Assembly (NCBI GenBank): GCA_023246355.1
Contig: JAHFIQ010000005.1
Coordinates: 3,086-67,085, forward strand
Direction of reading: 5' to 3'
Length of the DNA: 64,000 nt
Origin: Candidatus Uhrbacteria bacterium
GTDB taxonomy: Bacteria; Patescibacteriota; Patescibacteriia; UBA9934; GWF2-40-263
Shown here one piece after another: positions 11,878 through 54,434 of the stretch (position 1 is its first letter; every line of letters begins with the position of its first letter). Under the pieces are notes generated by a model. The model was not told where the DNA came from and did not search any database. It worked only from the letters and a program-made list of their open reading frames with translations. The position numbers and the translations under genes were made by a program.

Positions 11878-12008
11878 TTTCCCAACACACCCGTCGTTCC
11901 CCAGTCAGGGGCCGACGGTTGGGGTCACGCGGCATCCTGCCGAGTGAAGCCCATAAACGGTCCCTGACGGGTGGACAGCCACCCCCTACCCAGCCTGGAG
12001 AAGAAGTC

Positions 12009-13376: not shown

Positions 13377-13465
13377 CAACAGCTACGACGACTTAGGCTG
13401 GTGATAAATCGTGGCTGACCTCGCCTTCCGCGGAGACACGCAAGCGGTCCACGCCATTCGCTACG

Positions 13466-13500
13466 CCTAGCCGGCTTCCTTGTGAAAACAGGGGAGCCGG
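13466..13500 (+). terminator. Putative intrinsic terminator
   Basis: ccggcttcc...ggggagccgg stem followed by tattaattttt. Confidence 0.35.
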
Positions 13501-13746
13501 TATTAATTTTTGCCTGGTTTTTTGGCTGTTTGAAGCCATTGACAAACTCATCTAAATCTGGTACCTTAGTCTCTTCGTTCATTGAAACAAAACCCAGCAA
13601 TTCTTACGAAAAGAAGGTTGTAGGTTATAGGGAGTACGGGAAGGAATCGAGAGATTTGTGCGCAGAGATAGACTCTGCTTACAAACCTCTCGATTCCAAC
13701 GGCGCAAACCCGCGCCCGAGGGTCGTCTCACCAAAAGGAGAGGATC

Positions 13747-14490: not shown

Positions 14491-14684
14491 CCTTCCCTCG
14501 CGGTTGGCAACGTCCCTGGATTTCGGGGCGTCCGTAGTAGGTAAGGGTGCTGGGTCCTCCGGTGGTTGCTGATGCGCGGGGTTGTTGGACGAGAACCCGC
14601 GCCCGCACCCATCTCTCACCTCCTGGTTTCGGGGCTCCCTACTTGCTACGGGCGCCCCCATTCCAGGAGGCGTTTTATTTTGTG

Positions 14685-14727
14685 GGGAGGTGGAAGAGGT
14701 GGATTAGGTGGAAGAGGTAGGGCAAGG
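14685..14727. repeat. GGTGGA-repeat arm (left) of the unit carrying the four-helix-bundle gene
   Basis: ggaggtggaagaggtggattaggtggaagaggtagggcaagg. Inverted partner at 15121..15147. Confidence 0.5.
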
Positions 14728-15082
14728 AGGAAAACGGAGTTTAACTGAAAGACTTGCAAGCATTCTTTGAAGCTCGTAGATGAGCGTCAACAAGTTGTCG
14801 TCGTCCCTTGCATATCCCAATCGCACACAGAGCAAAACTTGAGTATCGAGCTCTGCAAGTGAACCTCGGGCTATGGCAATAAAGTGAGAATAATCCCTTC
14901 GTGTTCCTCTTGACTTTCCTTCGGCTATGTTGGATGGAACTGATATGGCGGAGCGTCTCATTTGAGACACAAGACCAAATCGTTCATCAGCAGGTAAGGT
15001 CTTTGTAAGTTCATAAACTTTCTCAACAATAATCATTGCTTTTTGCCACACAAATAGATCCTTGTATTTGATGTAAGCCATA
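14704..15082 (-). CDS. Four-helix-bundle protein (23S rRNA IVS protein / Avd-like family)
   Basis: MAYIKYKDLFVWQKAMIIVEKVYELTKTLPADERFGLVSQMRRSAISVPSNIAEGKSRGTRRDYSHFIAIARGSLAELDTQVLL matches the IVS four-helix-bundle family motif pattern. Lower GC than the surrounding genes. Confidence 0.7.
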
Positions 15083-15120
15083 CCTTTTGGTGATTTTACC
15101 ACCTTTCCCTTATTAATCTG

Positions 15121-15147
15121 ATCCACCTAGTCCACCTTTTCCACCTC
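15121..15147. repeat. GGTGGA-repeat arm (right)
   Basis: atccacctagtccaccttttccacctc, inverted relative to 14685..14727. Confidence 0.5.
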
Positions 15148-15396
15148 ACAACCTATGTCCACAACTCTTGACAAAATCACTAAAATATGATATAGTAAGC
15201 CGTTCAATAATGAGCAATAAAGCCTCATTTATTGGGACAAAACACGGTTTTCAACAGGTTAGGAAAGGGTACAGGACTTGTCCGTTTTGAAGCGACAGCA
15301 TAGGCTGATGCGCAAAACGGATACGTCCTGGCCGCCTCGCCCCGAGGTGGTTCAACCCTCCCCGAATGGGGAACCCTGCAACCTGGAGAAGAACCC

Positions 15397-16896
15397 ATGT
15401 CCCGTATCACCCTCCTGGCCCTCGTGGGCCTTTCCGCCGGCTGTGGCTTCGAAGTCGAGCGCGACAACGACTGCAACGAGTGCAGCAACATCGTCCCCGC
15501 CGACGCGGACACCGACACGGACACGGACGCCGACAGCGACGCGGACACCGACACGGACACCGCCGAGCCCACCGAGCCGTACTACGACGCGGATCGCGAC
15601 GGCTACTCGACGCTGCTCGACTGCAACGATGCCGACGCGGCGATCAACCCCACCGCAACCGAGGTCTGCGACAGCGCGGACAACGACTGCGACGGCGAGA
15701 TCGACGAAGGCCTGGCGACCGCGAGCTACTACGTCGACAACGACGGCGACGGCTACGGAGCCGGCGAAGCGGTCGAGTTGTGCGAGGTGCCCGAGTCGGG
15801 CTACAGCTCGGTCAGCGGCGACTGCAATGACGCCGACTCCGCGTTCTACCCCGGCGCCGAGGACGTCCCCGGCGACGGCCTGGACACGGACTGCGACGAC
15901 GAGACCGAGCCTGCGGACACCGAGACCAGCGACGGCGAGGACGACACGACCGGCGACGAGCCGGAAGACGAGTCCGAGACGGACGAGGGTTCCGGGTCCA
16001 CCGAGACCGACGACGGTTCCGACGAGGAGCCCGCGGTCGACGCGGATGCGGACGGCTACAGCGTCGTGAGCGATTGCGACGATTCCGATCCCGCGATCAA
16101 CCCCGGCGCGTCCGAGATCCTCGACAACGAGGTCGACGAGGATTGCGACGGAATCGCCCAGGTCACCCCGACCGAGAACGACGTCGACGGCGACGGTTCG
16201 GAAGTCGGGAGCGACTGCGACGACAGCGACGCCAGCGTCAGCCCCGCGGCCACCGAGGTCTGCGACAGCGTGGACAACGACTGCGACGGCTCGATCGACG
16301 AGGGTGTCACGAGTACGTTCTACGCGGACGTCGATGGCGATGGCTACGGCGGCTCCACCTCGAGTGTGACCGCCTGCTCCGTGTCCAGCGGCTACGTCGG
16401 GAACAGCACCGATTGCGACGACAGCGATGCGAGCGTCAGCCCCGCGGCCACCGAGAGCTTCGACGAGCAGGACAACGACTGCGATTCGGAGATCGACGAG
16501 GACTGGCAGATCGTGGCCGAGGTGACCTACGGGTCCTCCGGCTACTACGTCTTGAACGCGCAGGTGTTCGACGACGTGGACGAGCTCGGCAGCGCGTGGG
16601 ATCCCGAGACCGACACCGAGTCCTCCGGGACCACGGTCGCGATCGAGTACGCCACCGCCGAGTACGGCGACCTGTCCGCCTCCTGCGGGCTGCGCCTGAA
16701 CGTGAGCGAGGGCAACCCCGCCACGGACTGGCTCTGCTCCGGCTCCGCCATCGACACCGCGGCCGCCTCGGTCGACGTGTGGTTCTCCGGCACCTGGTAC
16801 GACGAGAGCGATCTCGTGGTCTGGGACGCCGGTCTCGGGAACGGCTCCTGCTCCGCGCTGCTCGTGGTCTCCACCTCGAGCGACTGCCAGCCCTAG
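15397..16896 (+). CDS. Lipoprotein with multiple MopE-like Cys/Asp repeats
   Basis: Lipobox LSAGC, (TD)n acidic linker, at least 6 repeats of the CxDxDxxxxPGAxExCDxxDNDCDGxIDEG type. Confidence 0.55.
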   Translation: MSRITLLALVGLSAGCGFEVERDNDCNECSNIVPADADTDTDTDADSDADTDTDTAEPTEPYYDADRDGYSTLLDCNDADAAINPTATEVCDSADNDCDGEIDEGLATASYYVDNDGDGYGAGEAVELCEVPESGYSSVSGDCNDADSAFYPGAEDVPGDGLDTDCDDETEPADTETSDGEDDTTGDEPEDESETDEGSGSTETDDGSDEEPAVDADADGYSVVSDCDDSDPAINPGASEILDNEVDEDCDGIAQVTPTENDVDGDGSEVGSDCDDSDASVSPAATEVCDSVDNDCDGSIDEGVTSTFYADVDGDGYGGSTSSVTACSVSSGYVGNSTDCDDSDASVSPAATESFDEQDNDCDSEIDEDWQIVAEVTYGSSGYYVLNAQVFDDVDELGSAWDPETDTESSGTTVAIEYATAEYGDLSASCGLRLNVSEGNPATDWLCSGSAIDTAAASVDVWFSGTWYDESDLVVWDAGLGNGSCSALLVVSTSSDCQP

Positions 16897-16921
16897 GCTC
16901 GGCAGGCTAGCCCCGCTAGCG

Positions 16922-16968
16922 ACAAACACCACGTTGGTGCTCGTCGTCAGCGGGGTGTTTGTTTTAGA
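16922..16968 (+). terminator. Putative intrinsic terminator
   Basis: caaacacc...ggtgtttg stem followed by ttttag. Confidence 0.35.
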
Positions 16969-16970
16969 CA

Positions 16971-17090
16971 CACCTGCAAAACTCGCGATCTTGCGTTTCA
17001 CGGGGCCCCACCACCTCCTCAACGTAGTTTTCACTACGTCTCGGAGGCTGGCTTCCCCGTTCAACGCAATCTCATCGAGTTTTGCAGGTG
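16971..17090 (-). repeat. 118-120-nt long-hairpin repeat element, copy a (inverted orientation)
   Basis: About 90% identical to the copies at 45063..45178 and 49926..50043. Perfect 15-bp terminal inverted repeat cacctgcaaaactcg/cgagttttgcaggtg. Confidence 0.7.
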
Positions 17091-17317
17091 TGTCTTGGTC
17101 ATTTTTGGCTATTCTTAGCGGAACCTATTGACAATTCCTGTGTATCATGGTAAAAGAAGCAGTCAAAAACATGGTACTTTGAGCCTGATCGCGAGCTGGC
17201 TTTTGTGGGATCGACCCCCAAAAGCCAGGCCGAGATCTTCCCAATCTCTCACTACCCCGCTCAGGCCTGGGTAAGTCCTTAGCGGGACGAGAGAAAACCC
17301 CCAAGTAGGAGACGAAG

Positions 17318-19726
17318 ATGCGTTCGCACTTCCTCTGTATCTGTATCCTGGCCCTCACGGGCTGTCCGACCTTCGAGGTCCAGCGAGATCCGGACGTGAC
17401 CGTCCTGCCGGTCGATCAAGACATCGACAACGACGGCGTCAGCATGGACATCGACTGCGACGACAGCGACGCGTCGATCGGTGGCCCCACGGCCTGGTAC
17501 CTCGATCTCGACGGCGATTCCTTCGGCGACAGCAACGTCTCCGAAGACGCTTGCGAGGCGTGGGATCGGTACGTGGCGATCGCCGGCGATTGCAACGACC
17601 AGGACGCCGGGATCAACCCCAGCGCGATCGAAGTGTGCGACGACGTCGACAACGACTGCGAAGGCACGATCGACGAAGGCGCAAGCGATGCCACGGCATG
17701 GTTCGCGGATGCGGATCAGGACAGCTACGGCGACGTGGAGAACTACGTCACGGCCTGCGACCAGCCCGATGGCTACATCGGCGACTGGAGCGACTGCGAC
17801 GATGCCAACCCGGCCGTGAACCCCGGCGAGTCCGAGGTCTGCGACGAGATCGACCAGAACTGCAACGGTGAAGTCGACGAGGGTGTGCAGAGCACGTACT
17901 TCGCGGACGTCGACGGCGATTCCTTCGGGGACGCCGAGAGCTCCGCGGACGCGTGTTTGGCGCCCAGTGGCTACGTGGAAGACGCGACCGATTGCAACGA
18001 CGGTGAGGCTTCGGTGAACCCGAGCGCCACCGAAGTGTGCAACGGCATCGACGACGACTGCGAAGGCACGATCGACGAAGGCGCAAGCGATGCCAGCACC
18101 TGGTACAGCGACGTCGATGGCGACGGCTTCGGCGACGTGAACGTGAGCGAGATTTCCTGCGAGGCCTCATCCGGCTTCGTGAGCGATTCCGCGGACTGCA
18201 ACGACACCGACGCCAGCGTGAACCCCTCCGCGATCGAGACCTGCGACAACATCGACAACGATTGCGATGGCGCCGTGGATCCCTCGACCTCCGTGGGCAC
18301 CGGTACCTGGTACGTGGACGACGACAACGACGGCTGGGGCGACAGCTCCGGCACGCCGGTCGTGCAGTGCACCCAGCCCGATGGCTACCTGGCCGATGCG
18401 AGCGATTGCGATGACAGCGACGCCACGGTGAACCCGAGTGGGACCGAGGTGTGCGACGGCATCGACAACAACTGCGACGGGTCCACGGATCCGGACGACA
18501 GCGCGGACGTCAGCACCTGGTACGCGGATCTGGACGGCGATGCCTTCGGGAATGCGAGCGTGAGCTCGGTTTCCTGCGAGGCCGACCCCGGGTTCGTGGC
18601 CGATGCGACCGATTGCGACGACACGGAGTCCTCGGTGAACCCGAGCGCCACCGAAGTCTGCAACGAGGTCGACGACGACTGCGACAGCGCGGTCGACGAG
18701 GACGTGGAGATCACGTTCTACGGCGACTGGGACAACGACGGGTACGGCAACAGCGCCGTCACCGAGTCGGCGTGCGAAGCCTCGGCAGGCTACGTGAGTG
18801 ATGGGAGCGATTGCGACGACACCAAGTCGGCGGTCAACCCCGGAGCGAGCGAAGTCTGCGACGAGATCGACGACGACTGTGACGGTCTCACCGACGATCA
18901 GGACGACTCTACGGACGAGTCCACGATGTCGGAGTTCTACGCCGACGCCGACGCCGACACCTACGGCGATGCCAGCTCGAGCTATGTCTCGTGCGAAGCG
19001 CCCGATGGCTACGTCGAAGACGCAACGGATTGCGACGACGGTGACGTCGGAAGCTATCCGGACGCGCCCGAGACCTGCGACGGCCTCGACAACGACTGCG
19101 ATGGCAGCGTGGACGAGAACCTCTACTCCGATTGGTACGAGGATCTCGACGGTGACCTGTTCGGCGCCGGAGCGGTGGTCAGCGTGATCTGCAACGGTTC
19201 CACCGGGAACCTCGTGGACAACGCGGACGATTGCGACGACAACGAATCGGGAACCAACCCGGACGCGACCGAGGTGTGCGACGAGATCGACAACAACTGC
19301 GACGGCGACGTCGACGAAGGTGTCGAGACGACGTACTACCAGGATGCGGACGGCGACAGCTACGGCGATGCGTCCACCAGCGACGATGCCTGCGAAGCGC
19401 CCAGCGGGTACGTGGAGGATTCCACGGACTGCGACGACGCCGATGCGAGCGTGAATCCCGGTGTGGCCGAGATCGATGCCAATGGCATCGACGACGACTG
19501 CGACGGGGGAATCGACGACGAGGGCATCTATTGCTGCCTGGACAACGACAGCGATGGCTACGGCGATCCCTCGTACTGCGAGTACGAAGGCACCGGGGTC
19601 TGCGACAGCGGCTACGTCGAAGGCGATGGCGACTGCGAAGATCACAACTACGCGGTTCACCCTCTCAGCCTGGACATTCCCGGCGACGGTGAGGATTCCG
19701 ACTGCGACGGCGATACCGAAGGCTAG
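17318..19726 (+). CDS. Large lipoprotein with ~13 MopE-like Cys/Asp repeats
   Basis: Lipobox LTGC. Repeated CDDxDxxxNPxAxExCDxIDNDCDGxVDEG units along the whole protein. AGGAGA RBS. Confidence 0.6.
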   Translation: MRSHFLCICILALTGCPTFEVQRDPDVTVLPVDQDIDNDGVSMDIDCDDSDASIGGPTAWYLDLDGDSFGDSNVSEDACEAWDRYVAIAGDCNDQDAGINPSAIEVCDDVDNDCEGTIDEGASDATAWFADADQDSYGDVENYVTACDQPDGYIGDWSDCDDANPAVNPGESEVCDEIDQNCNGEVDEGVQSTYFADVDGDSFGDAESSADACLAPSGYVEDATDCNDGEASVNPSATEVCNGIDDDCEGTIDEGASDASTWYSDVDGDGFGDVNVSEISCEASSGFVSDSADCNDTDASVNPSAIETCDNIDNDCDGAVDPSTSVGTGTWYVDDDNDGWGDSSGTPVVQCTQPDGYLADASDCDDSDATVNPSGTEVCDGIDNNCDGSTDPDDSADVSTWYADLDGDAFGNASVSSVSCEADPGFVADATDCDDTESSVNPSATEVCNEVDDDCDSAVDEDVEITFYGDWDNDGYGNSAVTESACEASAGYVSDGSDCDDTKSAVNPGASEVCDEIDDDCDGLTDDQDDSTDESTMSEFYADADADTYGDASSSYVSCEAPDGYVEDATDCDDGDVGSYPDAPETCDGLDNDCDGSVDENLYSDWYEDLDGDLFGAGAVVSVICNGSTGNLVDNADDCDDNESGTNPDATEVCDEIDNNCDGDVDEGVETTYYQDADGDSYGDASTSDDACEAPSGYVEDSTDCDDADASVNPGVAEIDANGIDDDCDGGIDDEGIYCCLDNDSDGYGDPSYCEYEGTGVCDSGYVEGDGDCEDHNYAVHPLSLDIPGDGEDSDCDGDTEG

Positions 19727-19740
19727 GTCTTCACGACCAA

Positions 19741-19778
19741 CGACCCGACTCAGCACTGCTGGGTCGGTTTTCTATTTG
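19741..19778 (+). terminator. Putative intrinsic terminator
   Basis: GC stem cgaccc/gggtcg followed by gttttctatttg. Confidence 0.4.
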
Positions 19779-19779
19779 T

Positions 19780-19850
19780 GACGATCGCAAAAAGTTTTTA
19801 GAAAATTTGCGATCGCAAAAAATTTTTCCGCCGTTTGCGATCGTCACCTT
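19780..19850. repeat. Three direct repeats containing the palindrome GCGATCG(C/T)
   Basis: gacgatcgcaaaaag / ttgcgatcgcaaaaaa / ttgcgatcgtcacc spaced about 25 bp apart, upstream of the 19995 gene. Confidence 0.4.
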
Positions 19851-19994
19851 TAGCCTGTTTGGCTAAAATAAGCTAAGAAAGTTTGTTTGCTTGGGGATAG
19901 AAGGCTTGACAGTTCTTCGGTATTCAGGCAATCTTCCAACCTCCACCAGCGCCGGCGGGATCCTCCGTTTGTGACTGGTTGAGGCCACCTCCCC

Positions 19995-22211
19995 ATGGAG
20001 AGCAACGTGAACCGATGTCTTTGGGCCCTTTGGGCCTGTGTACTGTTTTTCCTGGCAGGATGCCAGGGCTTCAACACCGCAACCGACGAGTCCTACGACA
20101 AGCAGGCAGCCTCCCGCGGCACCGGCCCGGACGATGACGGCGACGGCTACGGCGCGGTCCTCGACTGCGACGACACCGACGAGGACGTCAATCCCGGCGC
20201 CAACGAAGATCCCAGCAACGAGATCGACGACGACTGCGATGGCGCCACGGACTGCGACGACAACTCGGCCGACCTCACCGAGTCGTGCTACGACGGCGAT
20301 GACGATGGCGACTGCGCGGACACCAACGGCGACGGCGAGATCGACGTGGTCTTCCTGTGCAACGTCGACAACGACGAGAACGCAGCCACGATCGCGGCGC
20401 AGACCGGCGGCGATGCAGATCTCATCCAGAACTACATCGAGGTCGAGTACGAGGGTGACTCGGTTTCGGGCTACACCCTGCCCGATCCCGACTGCAACGA
20501 CGACAACGCGGATGTGAACCCCTCGGCCTCCGAGGTGTGCAACGGCGTGGACGACGATTGCAACGACCAGGTCGACGACGGCGTTTCGACTCCCACCGCG
20601 TTCTACGCGGATGCGGACGAGGACGGCTTCGGCGATGCGGACAGCTCGGTCACCGAGTGCGAGATGCCCTCGGGCTACGTCTCGGACTGGACCGACTGCG
20701 ACGATACCAACGCGGCGATCAATCCCGATGCGATCGAAGTCTGCGACGACGGTGACGTCGACGAAGACTGTGATGGTTCGGACGATGGTTCGGATGCGAT
20801 CGGCATGACCGACTGGTACCTCGACGCGGACGACGACTCGTACGGTGATGTCTACGTTTCCACCTCGTGCGACAACCCGTCCAGCGAAGTGCTCGTGGAC
20901 AACAGCGACGATTGCGACGACGACAACGCCGACGTGAATCCGGAAGCGATCGAGGTCTGCAACGGCTTCGACGATGACTGTGACGACATGATCGACGACG
21001 AGGACGACTCCACGGACGAGTCCACGATGACCGATTGGTACGTCGACAGTGATGTGGATGGTTACGGCAGCAGTGCCACCAGTACCACCCAGGCGTGCGA
21101 CATGCCATCGGGCTACGTCAGCAATGCCACCGACTGCAACGACTCGGCCCCCGGAATCAACCCCGCTGCCACCGAGATCTGCGACAGTGCGAACGTGGAC
21201 GAGGACTGCGACGGGCTGAGCGACAATCTGGATTCCTCTGCATCCAGTTCCGGCAAGAGCACGTTCTACGCGGACGTCGATCTCGACGGCTACGGGAACT
21301 CGGCTTCCACCAGCAGTGCCTGCGACGCCTCTACCGGCTGGGTCACGAATTCCACCGATTGCAACGACGCGGACGCGACGGCTTACCCCGGCGCTACCGA
21401 ATCGTGTGACGGTGTGGACGACGACTGCGACGGTACGGCCGACGACGGCGTGGAGACCACGTTCTACGCGGACACGGATGATGATGGTCGTGGCAATGCC
21501 AGCTCGACCGAGTCCGCCTGCGAAGCCTCCACGGGCTACGTGAGCAACTCGGACGACTGCGATGACACGGACGAGACCGTCTACTTGAACGCCGACGAGC
21601 TGTGCGACGACCAGGACAACGACTGCGACAGTGATGTCGACGAAGCGGCGGTCGATCAGACCACCTGGTCGCGCGATCGTGACGGAGACGGCTACGGAAA
21701 CCCCGATGCCGCGACCTTCACGAGCTGCGATGCGCCCGGCGGGTACGTGGAGACGAGCGGCGACTGCGATGACACGGACGAGGACGTCAATCCGGCGGCC
21801 ACGGAAGTGTTCAACGAGTACGACGACGACTGCGACGACCTGATCGACGAGAACACGAGCTGCATCACGGTGATCGAGATCTTGAACGATGGCGGTGAAG
21901 CCACGACGATTTCGGCGATCGTGAGCGACGACTCGACGCTCGACGGCGAGTGGTATCCGGGCGGCGTCCCCGGTGTGTCGGTGGTCGCGACCTCCTTGGG
22001 AGGCGACGACTGGGACTACGAGAGCACCATGGATCTGTGCATCGGGAGCTCCGGCTACGTGATCATCCACGCCGAGTTCGAGGACGGTTCCTCGCTGTGC
22101 GAGAGCATGGCGGCGACCGGCCTCGTCTACGGGACCATGGATGACATCGATCTGGACGCGGTCGCCTACGACAACCTCGACGGCACCTGCGACACGATCC
22201 TCACGCGCTAG
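19995..22211 (+). CDS. Large lipoprotein with MopE-like Cys/Asp repeats
   Basis: Lipobox FLAGC. At least 10 MopE-like repeats, then a C-terminal non-repeat ~120 aa. Confidence 0.6.
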   Translation: MESNVNRCLWALWACVLFFLAGCQGFNTATDESYDKQAASRGTGPDDDGDGYGAVLDCDDTDEDVNPGANEDPSNEIDDDCDGATDCDDNSADLTESCYDGDDDGDCADTNGDGEIDVVFLCNVDNDENAATIAAQTGGDADLIQNYIEVEYEGDSVSGYTLPDPDCNDDNADVNPSASEVCNGVDDDCNDQVDDGVSTPTAFYADADEDGFGDADSSVTECEMPSGYVSDWTDCDDTNAAINPDAIEVCDDGDVDEDCDGSDDGSDAIGMTDWYLDADDDSYGDVYVSTSCDNPSSEVLVDNSDDCDDDNADVNPEAIEVCNGFDDDCDDMIDDEDDSTDESTMTDWYVDSDVDGYGSSATSTTQACDMPSGYVSNATDCNDSAPGINPAATEICDSANVDEDCDGLSDNLDSSASSSGKSTFYADVDLDGYGNSASTSSACDASTGWVTNSTDCNDADATAYPGATESCDGVDDDCDGTADDGVETTFYADTDDDGRGNASSTESACEASTGYVSNSDDCDDTDETVYLNADELCDDQDNDCDSDVDEAAVDQTTWSRDRDGDGYGNPDAATFTSCDAPGGYVETSGDCDDTDEDVNPAATEVFNEYDDDCDDLIDENTSCITVIEILNDGGEATTISAIVSDDSTLDGEWYPGGVPGVSVVATSLGGDDWDYESTMDLCIGSSGYVIIHAEFEDGSSLCESMAATGLVYGTMDDIDLDAVAYDNLDGTCDTILTR

Positions 22212-43948: not shown

Positions 43949-45049
43949 ATGATGCCTCGCGTTGCCATTATTTATCTCTGTTACAACAACCGCGCCTATC
44001 TCGAGGATGTTTTTGCTTCCGTCGAAAAATTGCAGTACCCCCGTGAGCAACTTGAGGTTGTGGTCGTTGATAATGATTCCAAAGACGGGAGTCCTGAGTG
44101 GTTGCGTGCCCACCAGGGCATCACGTTTTTACCAAGTGAAAAGAATCTTGGATTTGCTGAGGGGAATAATGTGGGCATCCGTCACGCGATGTTGCATGGC
44201 GCTCAGTATGTCTACTTGTTAAACGGCGACGCCAAGCTTCATCCGGAGGCGATCATGGAGGCGGTGAAACTGGCAGAGTCAGACCAAACCATTGGCTCTG
44301 TGCAGTCGAGAATCATGTTGTGGAAGCATCCGGATATTGTGAACGTCACCGGAGGCATGGTGCATTTTTTGGGCTTTGGTTTTGCCCGCGACAACGGAAA
44401 AGCTTGGGATGGGGTCAGGTCCGACTTCCGACTTTTGGGTTTAGATGTCCAGGATCAAAAAAGTCGGAAGTCGGACCTGACCCCATTTGAAATCGCCTAC
44501 AGCAGTGGAGCGGCTGTACTGTATCGAGCCTCTGTGTTGCAGAAGGTCGGCTTGTTGGATTCATTCCTCTTTCTCTATCACGAGGACCTTGAACTTGGTT
44601 GGCGTATCCGTCTGGCCGGTTACAAGAACGTGTTGGCCATCGATTCGATTGCGTATCATGACTACGAGTTCAAACGCTCCATCAAAAAGTTTTATTGGAT
44701 GGAACGCAATCGTGTGCTCGTCCATTGTTCTCATCTCACACTCAGGTCGCTCGCTCTGCTTGCGATTCCGATGCTTCTTGCTGAACTTGGACTCATCCTA
44801 TTTGCGATCAAGGGTGGCTGGATTCGCGAGAAGGTTCTCGTGTACGTGAGTCTTTTCAGTCCTCGGTCCTGGAGGTACGTCAAAACAAAACGTCGCGAGA
44901 GCCGGCTCTTGCGACGTGTCGGAGATCGTGAAATTGTGCGCCTGTGGACCGGGAAAATTGAGCATCAGGAAACCCAAAGTTTCATCGTGGATCGCTTGAT
45001 CAATCCATCTTCATCAGCGCTTTGGAAGGTTCTTCGAGCTTTCATTTAA
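43949..45049 (+). CDS. Glycosyltransferase family 2
   Basis: VAIIYLCYNNRAYLEDVF...VVVVDNDSKDGS...NLGFAEGNNVG. Confidence 0.65.
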   Translation: MMPRVAIIYLCYNNRAYLEDVFASVEKLQYPREQLEVVVVDNDSKDGSPEWLRAHQGITFLPSEKNLGFAEGNNVGIRHAMLHGAQYVYLLNGDAKLHPEAIMEAVKLAESDQTIGSVQSRIMLWKHPDIVNVTGGMVHFLGFGFARDNGKAWDGVRSDFRLLGLDVQDQKSRKSDLTPFEIAYSSGAAVLYRASVLQKVGLLDSFLFLYHEDLELGWRIRLAGYKNVLAIDSIAYHDYEFKRSIKKFYWMERNRVLVHCSHLTLRSLALLAIPMLLAELGLILFAIKGGWIREKVLVYVSLFSPRSWRYVKTKRRESRLLRRVGDREIVRLWTGKIEHQETQSFIVDRLINPSSSALWKVLRAFI

Positions 45050-45062
45050 TATTCTAGCTGGC

Positions 45063-45178
45063 CTCCCAAAATCGATGAGATTACCTTGAACGGGGAAGCC
45101 AGCCGCCGAGACGTAGGTAAATCCTACGTTGAGGAGGTGGCGGGGCCCCGTGAAAGGTAAGATCGCGATTTTGGGAGG
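45063..45178 (+). repeat. 118-nt long-hairpin repeat element, copy b
   Basis: cctcccaaaatcg...cgattttgggagg terminal stem. About 88% identical to copies a and c. Sits in the convergent intergenic gap between two GT2 genes. Confidence 0.7.
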
Positions 45179-46018
45179 TCAGCTTTTTTGTCCCAGCCAC
45201 TTGAGGGTGTACTTGAGCCAACTCATGATGTGAATCCGTGTGGTGCGGTTGTGAAGGATTTTATCGATCGTGCCTTTTCCTTTTGCTGAATCTTTACTAT
45301 ACGCATGATAGAGCACCGCCTCGGGAAGATAATACACCGGGCGGCCATGGAGCCAGCTTGTCCGACACAGGTCAACATCTTCGTAATACATGAAGTAGCG
45401 ATCATCAAATCCGCCTAGTTCGCGGAACAGGTTGCCTTCGATCATGAAGGCAGACCCTTGCACCCAATCAACCATCCGACGCTTGTTGTGATCAAAATCC
45501 TCCATGAGGAATTGCTGTTTGTGTGACGTCACTCGGTTTTTTTTGAAGAGCGATGTTCGTTGCATGATGGGGGTGAGCACCGAGGGAAATCGTCGGCAGG
45601 TTTCTTGAAGTCGTCCATCCATGTACAAAATTTTTGGCGCCGCAATGCCGACCTTTGGGTGGTTTTTGAGAAAGCGATACAGTTTCATCAGAACCTCCGG
45701 ATCATCCACCCGAGTATCTGGATTCAAAAAGAAATAATAGTCCGAGTCGACTTCCTCTGCCCCACGGTTACACGAGCGACCAAATCCCACGTTCACGTTG
45801 CGAAGGATGACGATCGCTTGGGGAACATGTTTTTTTACCAGGGCATGTGCGTCGATTTTTGTCGATGCGTTGTCGACCAAAATAAATCGCACCTTGAGCG
45901 GTGTTGCCTCAAGGAGTTTTTGAACAGAGTGAAGACACGCCTCATCCAGACGATTGGCAGAAACCGTGACGATGGCGATGTCGACGCGTTCTTTTGGGTA
46001 GACGCTTGTTACTTCCAC
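45179..46018 (-). CDS. Glycosyltransferase family 2
   Basis: IAIVTVSANRLDEACLHSVQKLL...ILVDNAS...NVGFGRSCNRG. Confidence 0.65.
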   Translation of the reverse strand: MEVTSVYPKERVDIAIVTVSANRLDEACLHSVQKLLEATPLKVRFILVDNASTKIDAHALVKKHVPQAIVILRNVNVGFGRSCNRGAEEVDSDYYFFLNPDTRVDDPEVLMKLYRFLKNHPKVGIAAPKILYMDGRLQETCRRFPSVLTPIMQRTSLFKKNRVTSHKQQFLMEDFDHNKRRMVDWVQGSAFMIEGNLFRELGGFDDRYFMYYEDVDLCRTSWLHGRPVYYLPEAVLYHAYSKDSAKGKGTIDKILHNRTTRIHIMSWLKYTLKWLGQKS

Positions 46019-46905: not shown

Positions 46906-47100
46906 AACGTGGGCATCTTACGTGTGCATAGAGAGCTTTGTCCACGGTGTATTGACTTTTTCTTCATTTTATGCTATTTTTCTTGTCTGTTCACCCTCAA
47001 GGTTTCAGTGTTGAGTGTGGCGTTTTGAGGCTATTATTGGCCCCAGGCCGCCATTCTCAACAAACAAAGACAAGGTTTACGGGGCGCTCTGTGCGTTCCT

Positions 47101-47931
47101 GTGGGCTGGTCAGAGATGGCTCTGAGGTGTTCTGTGAACGTGTTCATTGACCAGATGGTGGATTTCAAGAATCGTTTCTTCCGGCTCGGTGGGACGATGG
47201 CGCTTTTCCTCAACCTCCTCGGTGATGACGAGCTGATGGAGCACATGATCAAGAGCGCTGAGGAGAAGGCTAACGCCAACCCGTTCGAGCAGACGGTGGA
47301 CGAGCAGATCGCCGCGCTGCGGGCTCAGAATGAGGCTGGCAGCTGGGGCATCACCGAGGACGTGTTCGTCCGGCTCGCGCAGACCGCGCCTGCTTGGCCC
47401 AAGGGTAAGGACGCCTACCGCTCGCTCCGTATCCGTTTCGGCGAGGGGGACGAGGGAGTGGCACTCACCTTCGAACGACATGCTGAGGCCATGAAGCGCG
47501 TCCACGACCCGAAGTTCTGGCGGTGGGAATTGCTTCACTCCGGAACGGTGCCCTATCAGGGCAAGTCGGTCGAGCGCCTGCGGCTCTTGAACGGCAATCA
47601 GAGCCACAAGGCCGTCGTCGAGTGGGTAATCATCAGCGACCTGTCAGCCAACCGCACGCGGAAGGACATCACTTCCGTGCGAAGTGTCCAGTCCCTCGCG
47701 GACGAAGGCCTCGTACTGGCGTGGATGTTCCCGAAGCGGGCGCAGGCGATCGACTACGACAAGTGGTGCGCCTGGTACTGCGGAGGCTACGAGTCAAACG
47801 TCCCCGAGCACGGCGAGGAGTGGCAGCGCGTGGTGGTCGTGGGCCGCGACACCGTTTCCGGTAGGGTCCACCTGCACGCCAGCTGGCGGAGCGGCGACAA
47901 CTCGGGCTACTCCGTTCCTCCCCTCGGGTAG
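47101..47931 (+). CDS. DGR target (variable) protein; C-terminal VR
   Basis: Its last 131 bp (47798..47928) is the VR copy of the TR at 48292..48422. No signal peptide. N-terminus unverified. Confidence 0.6.
   Translation: MGWSEMALRCSVNVFIDQMVDFKNRFFRLGGTMALFLNLLGDDELMEHMIKSAEEKANANPFEQTVDEQIAALRAQNEAGSWGITEDVFVRLAQTAPAWPKGKDAYRSLRIRFGEGDEGVALTFERHAEAMKRVHDPKFWRWELLHSGTVPYQGKSVERLRLLNGNQSHKAVVEWVIISDLSANRTRKDITSVRSVQSLADEGLVLAWMFPKRAQAIDYDKWCAWYCGGYESNVPEHGEEWQRVVVVGRDTVSGRVHLHASWRSGDNSGYSVPPLG
47798..47928 (+). repeat. DGR variable repeat (VR)
   Basis: 131 bp aligned to the TR with 15 substitutions, all opposite TR adenines. Ends 3 nt before the target stop codon. Confidence 0.9.
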
Positions 47932-47951
47932 CGCTCGGAACTTGGCAGCTT

Positions 47952-48010
47952 GGAGCTCGGCAGCCCTTGGACTTCAATCCTTGGTGCTGCCGGCTCCTTT
48001 TCATTTTGTT
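47952..48010 (+). terminator. GC-rich hairpin plus T-tract immediately downstream of VR (terminator / DGR-associated stem-loop)
   Basis: ggagctcggcagc ... gctgccggctcc (12 bp, 1 bulge) followed by ttttcattttg, 20 nt after the stop. Confidence 0.5.
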
Positions 48011-48291
48011 ATAATAGTTTTGGAGAGTAGGCCAGTGCGCCGGTGTTTACGGATGCCGGTCGCCGAAATCTCTTGCAATCCCAATATGCCGTCAGAATCC
48101 AGCCTTCGCTTGAAGGTAGGAGTGTGCGGTGCGGATTGGCGAGCACTCCGCATTTCATTTTGGAACCAGCCTTCGCTGAAGCTACGGCCGGCAGGCCAGT
48201 CGAGCGTGCGAACGGCGAAGGGTTCCGCATAAAATTCAGGGTATGGATGCGTCTGTACCCAGTGTCATGGAAGAATGGAATGTGAAGGGAG

Positions 48292-48422
48292 ACGTCCCCG
48301 AGAACGACGAGGAGTGGCAGAACGTGGTGGTCGTGAACCGCAACACCGATTCCGGTAAGGTCAACCTGAACGCCAACTGGCGGAGCAACGACAACTCGGG
48401 CTACTCCGTTCCTCCCATCGGG
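48292..48422 (+). repeat. DGR template repeat (TR)
   Basis: AAC-rich (at least 9 AAC codons in frame). Invariant partner of the VR. Lies inside a spurious 69-aa ORF. Confidence 0.9.
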
Positions 48423-48466
48423 AGTTCTCATCAAGGCAAAGGGGCGCCATGAAGCGCTCCTTCATG

Positions 48467-48862
48467 CTATCCGACGACTTTCATCCATCCGCCGAGCATC
48501 CTGCCCGTGTCTATCAGTTTTGATTCCATGTTTAGATACTGAACGTTCGTGATGCATTTGCAGTCCTTACACAGCCGTACCAGCAACTTCGTGGTATCGA
48601 CCTTAGCACTCGCTTCTTTTAGTCTGACGAGCTTCTCTGTTGGAATCGACGTCGCGGCGGCACCAAGAAGGAGTTCAAGTATCGAAAGAAGATATCTGGA
48701 ACAGGTTTCGCCAAGCGTATAGCGTTGGGGTTTCGGAAATTTTTTCATCACTTCGTTCCACAGGACATAAGCATCATAAAGCGTATGTACGATTGGAATA
48801 TCGCCAGGTCCTCCGTTCAACAACGTTCGTTCTTCCCGATTGAGTCGGGGGGGGGGTGTCAC
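48467..48862 (-). CDS. avd: Accessory variability determinant (Avd)-like four-helix-bundle protein
   Basis: 131 aa with KFPKPQRYTLG...LGGWMK features of Avd. Divergent from the RT and overlapping its 5' end. Confidence 0.6.
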   Translation of the reverse strand: MTPPPRLNREERTLLNGGPGDIPIVHTLYDAYVLWNEVMKKFPKPQRYTLGETCSRYLLSILELLLGAAATSIPTEKLVRLKEASAKVDTTKLLVRLCKDCKCITNVQYLNMESKLIDTGRMLGGWMKVVG

Positions 48863-49844
48863 TATTCATAAGGCAGAAGCTCGTGATTTATTTGATCGTT
48901 TGGTTTCGATTGAAAATTTGTTTTTGGCGTGGAGACGTTTCTGCAAAGGAAAACGGAGTCGTCATGATGTGATGGTATTCGAACGGAGGCTGGAAGACAA
49001 TCTTTTTGCTATCCGTGAGGAACTTCTTTTCGGATTGTATCAGCACAGTCGGTATGAGCGATTCACCATTCACGATCCGAAAGAGCGAACAATCCACAAA
49101 GCGATCATCAAGGATCGGGTTGTTCACCAAGCTATCGTGAACATTATTGAGCCACTATTCGAGAGAGGTTTCATTTTCGACAGCTTTTCTTGTCGTGTTG
49201 AGAAAGGAACACATGCTGCAGTACGAAGGCTGCGAATGTTTTTGCATCGAGCATCCCAAAACGATACGAAAACGGTCTATGCGCTGAAATGCGATGTGCG
49301 GAAGTTTTTTGACTCTGTAAACCATTTGGTTCTGCTAGAGCTGCTTGCCAAGCGGATTGAAGACCCTGCGACTATCAGGGTCCTTAAAAATATTATCAGT
49401 AGCTTTTCTGTTTTACCTCATACAGGTATTCCGCTTGGGAATCTCACGAGCCAGTTATTTGCAAATATCTATCTTCACGAACTCGACTGGTTCGTGAAAC
49501 AGAAACTTCGTGTCAGATATTATGTCCGTTATTGTGATGATTTTATTATGCTGTCGCTGTCCAAGACAGAAGCAGTGGTTTTGATTGAACAAGTTGACGC
49601 ATTCCTGCAGGAGCGTCTTAAGGTCCAACTCCATCCCAACAAGGTTCACGTTCGCACTTGGACGCAGGGTGTAGACTTTCTTGGTCACGTTCTTCTTCCA
49701 CGAGCAACTATTCTTCGTCCAACAACCGCTCGTCGTGTCATTGAACGTGCTACGAGAGAAAACGCTACGTCTTACCTTGGTTTGTGTGTCCACGCCGATG
49801 CCTACGAAGTCCGTAGAACGATCATGAATAAAACAAACATCTAG
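48840..49844 (+). CDS. DGR reverse transcriptase
   Basis: RT motifs 1-7. YCDD catalytic motif. Motif 4 reads LGNLTSQ (the I/LGxxxSQ DGR hallmark). 334 aa, TTG start. Confidence 0.8.
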   Translation: MSRGGGVTIHKAEARDLFDRLVSIENLFLAWRRFCKGKRSRHDVMVFERRLEDNLFAIREELLFGLYQHSRYERFTIHDPKERTIHKAIIKDRVVHQAIVNIIEPLFERGFIFDSFSCRVEKGTHAAVRRLRMFLHRASQNDTKTVYALKCDVRKFFDSVNHLVLLELLAKRIEDPATIRVLKNIISSFSVLPHTGIPLGNLTSQLFANIYLHELDWFVKQKLRVRYYVRYCDDFIMLSLSKTEAVVLIEQVDAFLQERLKVQLHPNKVHVRTWTQGVDFLGHVLLPRATILRPTTARRVIERATRENATSYLGLCVHADAYEVRRTIMNKTNI

Positions 49845-49856
49845 CTGCTTCAAATG

Positions 49857-49910
49857 CCGTGGCACGTCGTTCCCGCCAAAGGCGGGCGCGGCGCGAACGA
49901 CGTGCCGTGG
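49857..49910 (+). other. Strong compound stem-loop after the RT gene
   Basis: 16-bp outer stem ccgtggcacgtcgttc/gaacgacgtgccgtgg (2 G-U in RNA) enclosing ccgcc-aaa-ggcgg. No U-tract follows. Confidence 0.5.
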
Positions 49911-49925
49911 TATAGTACAACGAGA

Positions 49926-50043
49926 CCTCTGAAAAACTCGATGAGATTGCGATGCGCGGGGAAGCCAGCCTCCGAGACGTCGAAAACTACGTTGAGGAGG
50001 TGGCGGGGCCCCGCAAGTCGCAAGATCGCGAGTTTTGCAGAGG
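49926..50043 (+). repeat. 118-nt long-hairpin repeat element, copy c
   Basis: cctctgaaaaactcg...cgagttttgcagagg terminal stem. About 90% identical to copies a and b. Confidence 0.7.
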
Positions 50044-50057
50044 TCCCAATCGTTTTT

Positions 50058-51227
50058 ATGGACAAGGCTCACCTCACCATCGCCCATGTGGTCTGCACCT
50101 ATCCACCGTATCGCGGAGGGATGGGGAATGTTGCGCATGAATATGTCGAGCGACTCAGAGCTCGGGGCTACAACGTGCACGTGTTTACCATTCAAGATAC
50201 AGAAATAGATGATGACCCGCGCTATGTGCACCGCATTCCCGGCATCATCCAAATTGGAAATGCCGGAGTATTACCGTCGCTATTTCATCGCCTGTCTGGT
50301 TTTGATCTGGTTCATCTTCACTATCCTTTTTTTGGCGGCGCAGAACCGGTCATTGTGAGAAAAGCCATGACGCAGGATCAAGGACTTGTCATGACCTATC
50401 ACATGGATAATTTCGGTGCAGGTGTCAAAGGCGCGCTGTTCAGTGCCCATCGTCGCCTGTTATTTCCGTGGCTCGTGAATCGCGTGGACAGAATTTTGGT
50501 GAGCTCCATGGATTATGCCAAACATTGTGCGCTGGCTGAATTGGATGTGATGGACAGAATCGAAGAACATCCCTTTGGCGTGGATCTGGAGCGGTTTCAT
50601 TCAGGCGTGGAGCAGGAGTTGCGTGTGCGTCACCACATCAAACAAGACGTACCCGTTTTGTTGTTTGTGGGTGGGCTTGATGCCGCGCATGAGTTCAAAG
50701 GACTTTCCGTTTTGTTTGAGTCACTCAGTCATCTTTTGAATCAAGAGTGGCATCTGGTGATCGTCGGGGACGGGGCACTCAAGGAAACGTATCGAGAACA
50801 GGCACGCGAGAGAGGGCTCGGCGATCGTGTGACGTTTGCAGGAGCTGTCTCGCAGGATGATCTCCCGCGTTATTACCGTCTGGCGACGGTGCACCTGTTT
50901 CCTTCAACAAAACGCGCGGAGTCCTTTGGATTAGTCGCCCTGGAAGCTGCTGCCTCTGGAATTCCTTCCATCGCGTCAGATCTTCCGGGCGTCAGAACCG
51001 TTGTGCGTGACGGAGATACGGGACTGCTCGTTTCGCCTGGGGATGTTGAGTCACTGAAAAAAGCCATCCTCACCCTGCTTGAACAACCAGACTTGCGATC
51101 ACGCCTTGGTCTTTCAGCGCGAGTGAATGCACAGGCGCACTATCACTGGGAGCCGCTCATAGATCGACTGGAGGCGACGTATGATTCTGTCTTGGGGCAG
51201 CAAGCAAAGCGTCACTATCGAGTATGA
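50058..51227 (+). CDS. Glycosyltransferase family 4
   Basis: Start MDKAHLTIAHVVCTYPPYRGGMGN. GT4 C-terminal domain ESFGLVALEAAASGIPSIASDLPG. Confidence 0.7.
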   Translation: MDKAHLTIAHVVCTYPPYRGGMGNVAHEYVERLRARGYNVHVFTIQDTEIDDDPRYVHRIPGIIQIGNAGVLPSLFHRLSGFDLVHLHYPFFGGAEPVIVRKAMTQDQGLVMTYHMDNFGAGVKGALFSAHRRLLFPWLVNRVDRILVSSMDYAKHCALAELDVMDRIEEHPFGVDLERFHSGVEQELRVRHHIKQDVPVLLFVGGLDAAHEFKGLSVLFESLSHLLNQEWHLVIVGDGALKETYREQARERGLGDRVTFAGAVSQDDLPRYYRLATVHLFPSTKRAESFGLVALEAAASGIPSIASDLPGVRTVVRDGDTGLLVSPGDVESLKKAILTLLEQPDLRSRLGLSARVNAQAHYHWEPLIDRLEATYDSVLGQQAKRHYRV

Positions 51228-52835: not shown

Positions 52836-52896
52836 GGGGTCAGGTCGGGTTATGGACATTTTGAAAAACAGAATGTCCATAACCCGACCTGACCCC
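52836..52896. repeat. REP-like perfect hairpin (24-bp stem)
   Basis: ggggtcaggtcgggttatggacat - 13-nt loop - atgtccataacccgacctgacccc. An identical stem occurs at 54370..54430. Confidence 0.75.
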
Positions 52897-52900
52897 ACCT

Positions 52901-53800
52901 TCACTTTCCTCTGCTTATTCTTCCTACCACAGATCGGTCGATACCAACAAGCTTAGCGATTTCTGTCGTTAAATATCCGCATCGCAACCGAGCAAAAACA
53001 ATCCCTTCGTTTCGTTTAGTCTTTGTCGTGGCGTCGGCAAAAATTTCCTCAAGAGTCGGTCGACCAACGATCCGTTCTTCTCGACGGTACTCCTTGAGTT
53101 CCTCTACTCCATTCGTTTTCTCCCAAATCCAACTCACGAATTGAGGACTGCCTAAGAGGAAACCGTTTGAAACGTCATCGTAAGGGTTTCTTGCATCAGA
53201 CCCTTCATCGACAAACTGTCGGTACTCTTGCTGGGCTTCCTGTTTTTTTTTCGAAAAATGAGTCAGGAGCCAATCTACGCGCAGCCACTCAGGCGAGGTG
53301 GACGCACCACAGGTTGCACGATAACTACTCCATTTCCATTCTTTTGGGTGTTTTACAAGGTGAGCGCGAACAGGATTCAAAACGATATAACGAGCCACTT
53401 CCAGAAGGTATGTCTCTTTTTCAATGACGAACGCCTTGTATCTACCTTGGAAGAGGTGTCCGACACGTCCGTGTACTGCGTTAAACCACTGAGAGTAGTT
53501 TCCGTTGAGATCTCGCATGGCAATCGCAAGGTTTGCGTCGAGTGTCTCCAAAAGCAAGTGATAGTGGTTTCCCATGAGACAATACGCGTGGCACAGGAGG
53601 TTATGTGTCTTACAAGTATCCTGAAGCCATCTCAAAAATCGACGTCGGTCATGATCGGTCAAAAAAATATCTTGTTTGGCGTTTCCTCGAGCAATGACGT
53701 GATAGAGCGCACCTGGATATTCAATACGTAAAGGTCTTGACATAGATTTTTTAATGATTTGTTTAGTTTCTTCTGGGAACATAAAACCCCCAAAATTCAA
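52901..53800 (-). CDS. REP-associated tyrosine transposase (RAYT; IS200/Y1 HUH family)
   Basis: YHVIARGN...HAYCLMGNHYHLLLE (HuH)...GHLFQGRYKA (catalytic Tyr region). True start is probably MSRPLRIEYPG. Confidence 0.7.
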   Translation of the reverse strand: MNFGGFMFPEETKQIIKKSMSRPLRIEYPGALYHVIARGNAKQDIFLTDHDRRRFLRWLQDTCKTHNLLCHAYCLMGNHYHLLLETLDANLAIAMRDLNGNYSQWFNAVHGRVGHLFQGRYKAFVIEKETYLLEVARYIVLNPVRAHLVKHPKEWKWSSYRATCGASTSPEWLRVDWLLTHFSKKKQEAQQEYRQFVDEGSDARNPYDDVSNGFLLGSPQFVSWIWEKTNGVEELKEYRREERIVGRPTLEEIFADATTKTKRNEGIVFARLRCGYLTTEIAKLVGIDRSVVGRISRGK

Positions 53801-53941: not shown

Positions 53942-54355
53942 TTACTTGCTGATCTCACTTATTGACGTGACATACCCAAGCTCATCAATATCATTTTCTT
54001 GATAATCAAGTAAAAATATCGAATGGGCGTAAGGATCGGACGTATTGGACTTGAAGTCCTCACTAAATTCTTGATAGCTCATCCTTCGACCATCCAACAA
54101 GGTAACCAATGGAGCTTGATCACCAACTGCCGGATAGAGGATTACAGGTAGGTGCCCATTTTGTTTGAACAAAAAATTCGGAGTTCCCCAAGGTGAGATA
54201 TCAAGACTCACAATTTGCCCTATATTGTCGCCGATGACGATGGTTGGGCTCGTTGGCGCAAGTGTTGGATATATTAGACGGAATGCTGTCCATCCAATGA
54301 TAATACCCAAAAGGCAGAATCCGACCGGCTTGCAACGAGACGAAATTTTGATCAT
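53942..54355 (-). CDS. Hypothetical secreted/membrane-anchored protein (cargo of REP-bounded unit)
   Basis: N-terminal hydrophobic segment. No motif. Confidence 0.35.
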   Translation of the reverse strand: MIKISSRCKPVGFCLLGIIIGWTAFRLIYPTLAPTSPTIVIGDNIGQIVSLDISPWGTPNFLFKQNGHLPVILYPAVGDQAPLVTLLDGRRMSYQEFSEDFKSNTSDPYAHSIFLLDYQENDIDELGYVTSISEISK

Positions 54356-54369
54356 ACAGTTTAGGTTTA

Positions 54370-54430
54370 GGGGTCAGGTCGGGTTATGGACATTCTCTTT
54401 TCCAAAATGTCCATAACCCGACCTGACCCC
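54370..54430. repeat. REP-like perfect hairpin (24-bp stem), second copy
   Basis: Same arms as 52836..52896 with a different 13-nt loop. Confidence 0.75.
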
Positions 54431-54434
54431 ATTC

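Follow-up and report, generated by a model that had tools for sequence, protein, structure and literature searches.

The closest described case to the element analyzed here is bcr1 of the Bacillus cereus group. The element is a ~127 bp palindromic repeat present in three copies in a 64,000-nucleotide stretch of a Candidatus Uhrbacteria genome (contig JAHFIQ010000005.1, positions 3,086 to 67,085; hereafter the window), and it probably belongs to the MITEs (miniature inverted-repeat transposable elements). bcr1 is ~155 bp long, has 5 bp direct repeats and a non-conserved distribution, is transcribed, and carries compensatory changes (PMC3184786). The two are alike as small, dispersed, intergenic, non-coding repeats with short direct repeats that differ between related strains. 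Both retain a stable secondary structure through compensatory changes, and neither has a named mobilizing transposase. The element departs from bcr1 as follows: it forms one continuous hairpin; its duplications are 4-6 bp; its GA/GA loops are conserved; and it is found in Patescibacteria. The two share no sequence similarity. Transcription has been shown for bcr1 and is predicted for the element.

ERIC and Correia (NEMIS) repeats are 100-160 bp long, have terminal inverted repeats and target duplications, and form long RNA hairpins when co-transcribed; they lie in intergenic DNA beside gene ends and can alter mRNA stability (PMC3184786). The element shares their size range, terminal inverted repeats, target duplications, and intergenic location near gene ends. 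In contrast to these repeats, which duplicate TA and pair mainly through their terminal repeats, it duplicates an arbitrary 4-6 bp, is paired over its full length, and is better conserved in its interior than at its termini.

REPINs keep invariant REP 16-mers at their termini, around a variable spacer (PMC3116915). Features common to REPINs and the element are a hairpin of the ~110-nt class, two inverted halves, compensatory changes, a location outside genes, and a presumed single-stranded intermediate (PMC3116915). REPINs flank their RAYT gene and leave no duplication; the element does not flank the RAYT gene, has duplications, and shows the opposite conservation pattern. Another palindrome family of the window, GGGGTCAGGTC...GACCTGACCCC, is a much closer fit to what is described for REPINs. 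PATEs resemble the element as short, non-coding sequences with hairpin-forming parts in hosts that encode Y1 transposases. However, a PATE has two separate hairpins, left and right, that stem from its IS200/IS605 parent. Its insertion point is 3' of a fixed tetra- or pentanucleotide, and it has neither terminal inverted repeats nor duplications; none of these PATE-specific features matches the element. Finally, integron attC sites also maintain structure over sequence in an imperfect palindrome of 60-140 nt, with one functional strand and conserved extrahelical bases. This identity was rejected in a comparison made by eye, with no attC model: the element has no R''/R' boxes (RYYYAAC/GTTRRRY) and no cassette arrays beside an integrase, and it has the duplications that attC sites lack.

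Judged from its sequence, the element represents a new family within an already known type of repeat (compare bcr1, ERIC, and Correia). The occurrence of strong strand-specific structural selection together with target duplications in one family is unusual. Patescibacteria have very small genomes with few recognized mobile elements, and no description of MITEs in this group was found in the literature.

Copies, insertion sites, and target duplications

Ends of each copy were set by a covariance model (R1).

16967-17094, minus strand: copy 1, 128 nt; R1 score 145 bits; RNA fold -82.2 kcal/mol, z -14.3 (complement -66)
45056-45184, plus strand: copy 2, 129 nt; R1 score 129 bits; RNA fold -73.3 kcal/mol, z -11.2
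49922-50047, plus strand: copy 3, 126 nt; R1 score 137.5 bits; RNA fold -71.9 kcal/mol, z -8.8
49918-49921, plus strand: probable left target-duplication copy of copy 3 (CAAC), predicted from filled versus empty sites; one mismatch to the right copy
50047-50050, plus strand: probable right target-duplication copy of copy 3 (CAAT), from filled versus empty sites

The initial annotation had placed copies at these three sites, with slightly narrower ends. The placement is confirmed by two conserved core patterns, each of which occurs three times in the window as compared to zero expected from shuffles. Pairwise identity among the copies had been put at 88-90% and is 79-87% as measured. The core described as conserved is present in all three copies, but copy 2 departs from it at one base (CCGCC for CCTCC) and copy 3 has a small apical deletion. 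Two objections raised at that stage, a tRNA/rRNA fragment and an assembly artefact, were both rejected: ARAGORN detects only a transfer-messenger RNA (tmRNA) in the window, and an independent assembly from another sample is 100% identical over 11.5 kb that include copies 2 and 3. In the proposed comparison with Rfam, no family matches the element. Across the whole window, the tmRNA at 2535-2922 alone passes the gathering thresholds, and the element itself returns nothing at E<=10 beyond generic miRNA-hairpin noise. A hammerhead-like CUGAUGA motif, seen by eye in CGAUGAG, was dismissed for want of Rfam support.

The three copies occupy different settings. Copy 1 sits between the plus-strand MopE-repeat genes 15397-16896 and 17318-19726, is antisense to both, and has no recognizable target duplication (k=0 in the flank test). 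Copy 2 takes up all of the space that separates a convergent pair of GT2 glycosyltransferase genes (43949-45049, plus; 45179-46018, minus); the last codon and the stop of the minus-strand gene come from it. Copy 3 lies in sense orientation between an extended -10-like box, TGGTATAGT (49908-49916), and the GT4 glycosyltransferase ATG at 50058. As this box is conserved in four genomes it may be a promoter, although a simple promoter scan returned no match in this region; copy 3 would then be the 5' leader of the GT4 mRNA, forming a very stable 5' hairpin. The element alters gene ends and a predicted 5' leader within a cell-surface polysaccharide locus.

A listed open reading frame (ORF) at 49854-51227 (plus, 457 aa) runs in frame through a GC-rich hairpin and copy 3 into the GT4 gene. 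GT4 homologues and gene calls begin at ATG 50058 (389 aa). Because copy 3 has no stop codon in the GT4 frame, gene callers could over-extend the gene. Recognition of the family would keep such hairpins from being annotated as small RNAs (sRNAs) or as parts of ORFs.

In total, 14 copies were collected from six assemblies or contig sets, and 12 of these are distinct. An exact-match pattern for the right-arm core gathered 10 of the 14. The ends read G(G/A)GACC...GGTC(C/T)C, written also G(G/A)GACC..AAAACTCGATGAG. The terminal inverted repeats are ~19 bp long, with the form G(G/A)GACC..TG.AAAACTCG and its complement, and the first ~19 nt are complementary in nearly all copies. The element has no coding capacity, as the hairpin takes up the entire 126-129 nt.

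All 14 copies were examined for target duplications with the ends fixed at the first and last positions of the model. Direct repeats of 4-6 bp stand immediately outside both ends in six (numbers with L mark loci outside the window):

L001: AGGTTC
L002: ACTTC
L005: TCCT
L006: TGAC
L007: ATGA
L017B: ACTGT

The chance of at least four matching flank bases is ~0.004 per copy. The copies that bear direct repeats are those of the youngest subfamilies.

Empty sites provide a separate view of insertion. Three related genomes (L030, L031/32, L033/34) carry the surface-polysaccharide locus of the window in the same gene order at ~74% nucleotide identity. The sites of copies 2 and 3 are empty in all three, and the covariance model finds no element copy at their syntenic loci. 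At the copy 2 site, the convergent GT2 genes of the relatives overlap tail to tail by ~26 nt, and nucleotide synteny blocks are interrupted at 45006/45181 around the copy. At the copy 3 site, the divergent GT2/GT4 spacer measures 62-110 nt in the relatives, where the window has copy 3 and a diversity-generating retroelement (DGR) cassette. Here, the empty site (L030, L031, L033) reads TATAGTAGAAC^CGTTTTATGG and the filled site of the window reads TATAGTACAAC-element-AATCGTTTTTATGG, which corresponds to an AAC/AAT (or CAAC/CAAT) duplication. If the first C of the right duplication belongs to the element as its final base, as it may, the duplicated bases are AAC/AAT. The sequence 3' of it, CGTTTT(T)ATGG, matches the empty sites. 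The reciprocal case is the S41 peptidase-NUDIX junction, which contains the element in L006 and is empty in the window's own genome.

The surroundings of the copies are otherwise unrelated. Nucleotide similarity between loci is limited to the element and is absent from the flanks, and the neighboring genes, with housekeeping or surface functions, are diverse (PfkB, MFS, AlaRS, S13, atpB/atpF, NUDIX, tRNA-His, sigma-70). Insertions lie between genes or cover the last codons of a gene, and both orientations occur: of 14 copies, 6 are sense to their neighbors, 4 are antisense, 2 lie between convergent genes, and 2 could not be assigned. No gene is disrupted, and a stop codon is overlapped by copy 2, L006, L017B, and L035. 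The view of the repeat as dispersed and mobile is supported by the empty sites, the target duplications, and the unrelated neighbors. Copies in the window and in the Candidatus Uhrbacteria metagenome-assembled genome (MAG) JACRJW01, at non-orthologous sites, are 90-92% identical, as compared to ~74% for syntenic coding DNA. Such similarity points to a shared lineage that was recently active or exchanged, to strong constraint, or to both.

Hairpin structure and strand-specific covariation

Each window copy folds into one extended imperfect hairpin, as the initial annotation had described. The RNA folds have minimum free energies between -72 and -82 kcal/mol, with z between -9 and -14, and are equaled by 0 of 200 shuffles. 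The stems quoted there, with their compensatory differences in the terminal, second, and third stems, are correct. The hairpin comprises: seven helices; a bulged A and a bulged G; an AA/GGGG loop; and three 2x2 internal loops, with GA facing GA in most copies and little or no variation at two of these loops. One U·G pair is invariant across copies and one G·U pair is nearly invariant. GNRA tetraloops (GAAA, GGAA, GAGA) cap several copies, but the apical loop is not conserved.

A covariation check was carried out with the added copies, on an alignment of the 12 distinct copies fitted to a covariance model. Standard pairs fill 98.3% of 572 pair cells. Twenty of the 48 pairs are changed on both sides, as compared to 7.5±1.7 in shuffles, and none of 500 shuffles reaches any of five covariation measures. 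When partners are slid by 1-3 columns as a control, pairing falls to 39-47%. An independent MAFFT alignment of nine copies gives the same picture (16 double-change pairs versus 5.8±1.5). The two L017 copies, which were not selected by pattern, add double changes within the core: GCGA/TCGC for GCCA/TGGC, and CCGCC/GGUGG.

Conservation is uneven along the hairpin, with the outer 9 bp most variable and the interior most conserved. In the left arm, which the collecting pattern did not select, a count from the alignment gives ~7 variable columns of 25 in the core versus ~25 of 35 in the outer third.

The noncanonical pairs add a direction to this selection. Counted along the strand of the element itself, G·T (G·U) pairs number 35 and A·C pairs 3, whatever the genomic orientation, and this excess implies that one specific strand is under selection. 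The proposal that the hairpin itself is selected is supported, and the selection is strand-specific. With RNA parameters, the sense strand is 10-17 kcal/mol more stable than its complement, whereas the difference with DNA parameters is just 1.6-5 kcal/mol. The stronger asymmetry under RNA energy rules is a weak pointer to RNA. The selected single strand could be either RNA or single-stranded DNA (ssDNA).

Mobilization and competing explanations

Because insertion, a short target duplication, terminal inverted repeats, the absence of coding capacity, and dispersed copies are all shown, and these are the defining features of MITEs (PMC3184786), the element is assigned to this class. It is probably a structured fold-back MITE, and a transposase acting in trans with staggered cuts would move it. 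Such an enzyme, DDE-type or similar, would be encoded outside the window. Most double changes divide subfamilies at non-orthologous sites in different genomes; an example is the GCGAUGCGCGGGG...CCCCGCAAGUCGC variant common to copy 3, L001, L002, and L004. Because the double changes separate subfamilies, selection on the hairpin seems to act mainly on the propagating (master) lineage. The folded single strand would then matter for propagation, and the hairpin, under selection on one strand, would serve as a single-strand substrate of transposition or as RNA. Once inserted, the element would be co-transcribed with its neighbors to give a very stable RNA hairpin, for example in the GT4 5' leader. 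This hairpin may be tolerated, or may be mildly useful as an end-protecting or terminating structure. Such passive co-transcription is likely. The element could also act as an RNA in cis, but its lack of orientation bias argues against a strand-specific function of this kind.

Several observations weigh against the assignment to a trans-mobilized MITE. Seven copies, including copies 1 and 2 of the window, have no direct repeats, and duplication length is not uniform (4, 5, or 6 bp). A search of ~400 kb of loci gave, beyond the known copies, no solo ends and no larger element that has the same ends and carries a transposase. No DDE transposase was found in any locus examined, the Y1 gene being the sole transposase-like gene. 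Conservation of the right-arm core was partly forced by the exact-match collecting pattern. Finally, a transposase that binds double-stranded ends fails to explain the covarying terminal stem and the invariant interior loops. One possibility would be that the true substrate, recognized by some mobilization machinery in Patescibacteria, is the folded strand itself (ssDNA or RNA), invariant in its bulges and conserved in its GA/GA and AA/GGGG loops, and that this machinery still gives rise to 4-6 bp duplications. If true, this would explain both the covarying termini and the double changes between propagating subfamilies. We know of no prokaryotic miniature element for which structure- and strand-specific recognition is combined with staggered-cut integration, possibly through an RNA intermediate, and we hold this reading to be unlikely.

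The initial annotation instead favored a PATE/REP-type assignment and a link to the RAYT-like gene at 52901-53800 (minus), such that a REPIN- or PATE-type ssDNA hairpin would be mobilized by the Y1/HUH transposase encoded there. The Y1_Tnp domain is present in this gene (Pfam, 46.9 bits), but its NCBIfam REP_Tyr_transpos score of 74 bits is below the 80-bit cut-off. Strand-specific folding with conserved irregularities is what HUH substrates would show, compensatory changes are known in REPINs too (PMC3116915), and no transposase other than Y1 was seen in any locus. The gene also lies 2.9 kb from copy 3, and in L017 one copy of the element is located 94 nt downstream of a 73%-identical RAYT homologue. 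At ~1 copy per 18 kb in this genome, however, a copy within 3 kb of any gene is unsurprising, and RAYT loci L013-16, L020, and L030 have no element within 5-10 kb. L017 is the only locus with an element near a RAYT gene, and there it stands outside the bracketing palindrome. When IS200/IS605, PATEs, and REPs are moved by HUH/Y1 enzymes the target is not duplicated, and duplications of 4-6 bp are not a product of this route. The variable ends and conserved interior of the element are the reverse of a REPIN. The flanks of the 14 copies share no motif that could be the fixed short target of a PATE, TnpA/TnpB elements with comparable ends were not encountered, and the element forms a single uninterrupted hairpin, unlike PATE ends. 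The RAYT gene is bracketed everywhere by the other palindrome, GGGGTCAGGTC...GACCTGACCCC, in the window and in six distinct homologous loci, and this family has its own dispersed copy at 44411-44484. Neither the PATE/REP assignment nor the link to the RAYT gene is supported, and mobilization by this enzyme is unlikely.

Two further explanations would account for the covariation without transposition of a folded strand. In one, the copies would be a multi-copy family of independently transcribed, structured sRNA genes, encoding a protein-binding or regulatory RNA. Strong covariation, the invariant U·G and nearly invariant G·U pairs, the GA/GA internal loops conserved in most copies, GNRA tetraloops on several copies, a strand asymmetry that is large under RNA and small under DNA energy rules, and conservation exceeding that of adjacent coding DNA are all consistent with this proposal. 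The insertions with target duplications and empty sites are not. Further, no consistent promoter-like or terminator-like sites flank the copies, they share no conserved gene neighborhood and occur in both orientations, stop codons are overlapped by some of them (L006, L017B, copy 2), the apical loop varies, and Rfam has no match. An sRNA gene family is an unlikely identity. In the other, arm-to-arm repair or gene conversion in an extruded hairpin or cruciform would keep the arms complementary without selection. Long palindromes can extrude, correction between arms would mimic covariation, and both strands fold nearly equally well with DNA parameters. Such correction should nevertheless erase the bulged A, the bulged G, the AA/GGGG and GA/GA loops, and the U·G pair, all of which persist in 12 copies from several genomes. 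In addition, the 35:3 excess of G·T over A·C follows the element strand, a bias that symmetrical repair does not predict. Arm-to-arm repair is very unlikely because these mismatches and bulges persist. With duplications, empty sites, and strand-specific covariation in one family, the probable fold-back MITE offers a clean test case for what maintains the hairpins of bacterial repeats.

Distribution and neighboring features of the locus

A scan of a genome collection with the right-arm core ACGTTGAGGAGGTGGNGGGGCC returned seven true loci. Four are in the Candidatus Uhrbacteria MAG JACRJW01 and three (L005-L007) in MAG CAYJVP01, which is labeled 'uncultured Gammaproteobacteria'. A metagenome scan added one true copy, adjoining tRNA-His, together with three chance matches. 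A pattern-free model search found two copies in L017 that do not match the core pattern, and the model also located a fourth copy in the window's own genome (L035, 12737-12864), 8 kb past the window end. Three scans of viral contigs gave only chance matches in coding DNA, and blastn against plasmids and phages gave no element match. As far as these searches show, the family is confined to a narrow group of Uhrbacteria-like Patescibacteria. MAG CAYJVP01 and the window's genome agree in S41-NUDIX gene order, with proteins 58% identical, and both carry the 126-nt element and a palindrome of the GGGGTCAGGTC type; the taxonomic label of the MAG is probably wrong.

Within CAYJVP01, the copies at L005 and L006 are indistinguishable (100% identity). 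In the L007 copy, a CCGCC...GGCGG hairpin pair (insert at ~5122-5152), which resembles the small GC-rich palindromes of the window, interrupts the left arm. On the minus strand of L006, a ~176 nt sequence at 5519-5694 begins with the left end of the element, GGAACCTCTGAAAAACTGATGGATGTTCGTT, and finishes with AGAGGTTTCC. Its interior consists of GC-rich hairpins, and its fold is not significantly better than shuffles (z -2). This sequence may be a decayed or composite relative that shares only the termini.

The window contains at least three distinct families of mobile palindromes in 64 kb: the fold-back element, the REPIN-like family tied to the RAYT gene, and small GC-rich palindromes. In the second of these, the RAYT-like gene, which has thousands of homologues of 60-77% identity in Patescibacteria, and the next ORF (53942-54355, minus) are bracketed by two perfect 62-nt palindromes at 52836-52897 and 54370-54431, GGGGTCAGGTCGGGTTATGGACAT...ATGTCCATAACCCGACCTGACCCC. 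At each homologous locus analyzed (L013-16, L017-19, L020), the RAYT gene has this inverted 11-mer on both sides. The ends of the family are conserved, its interior varies but still forms a hairpin, it is positioned around the RAYT gene, and it lacks a flanking duplication. This is the form expected of a REPIN (PMC3116915), and the family is likely the cognate REP/REPIN of this widespread Patescibacteria Y1 family. A third copy of 74 nt with another interior (44411-44484) lies in frame inside the plus-strand GT2 gene 43949-45049 and encodes GVRS...DLTP. Close GT2 homologues have insertions at the same point that differ in length and sequence, start with GVRS, and end with DLTP; distant homologues have none. 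This in-gene palindrome behaves like the Rickettsia palindromic elements that enter coding sequences.

The third family has the core CACGTCGTTC...GAACGACGTG and occurs in the window at 49854-49913, with an inner CCCGCCAAAGGCGGG hairpin. Further sites are L001 4310-4351, L033 ~6265-6300, and L031 ~12940-12975, and the window and L001 share a 42-nt stretch at 100% identity. At the putative GT4 promoter, this palindrome is absent from L030, present in L033 with CGTGG on both sides, and present in L031 as a variant with paired changes.

The DGR lies within 46970-49850 and consists of: a variable repeat (47798-47928) at the 3' end of ORF 47101-47931; a template repeat (48292-48422) that is 89% identical to it; an Avd-like ORF (48467-48862) read from the other strand, whose NCBIfam score of 67 bits falls short of the 80-bit cut-off; and a reverse transcriptase (48840-49844). 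The entire cassette is missing from the syntenic locus of the three related genomes. At its left edge (~46940-46975) there seems to be a diverged second copy of the GT4 promoter region, and comparison with the empty sites shows the cassette and the element as separate insertions around an ancestral GT4 promoter region. The element was rejected as a template/variable repeat of the DGR, or as an RNA of the adjoining reverse transcriptase: the true repeat pair is elsewhere (48292-48422 / 47798-47928), other element copies are not near reverse transcriptases, and the two are separate insertions. Retron non-coding RNA and group II intron domains were discarded on the same grounds, with the additional presence of the Avd-like ORF.

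The window belongs to a contig of ~77 kb from a groundwater-type metagenome in ENA, and its proteins have homologues in Uhrbacteria/Patescibacteria. The tmRNA gene (2535-2922, minus) scores 123 bits in Rfam, and ARAGORN gives its tag peptide as ANNVMAMIKNAFRVPSFAPVLA. The block 12000-20000 has a G+C content of 61-63%, as compared to ~51% elsewhere in the window, and encodes several large MopE-type (PF11617) repeat proteins that are putatively metal-binding (15397-16896, 17318-19726, and 19995-22211).

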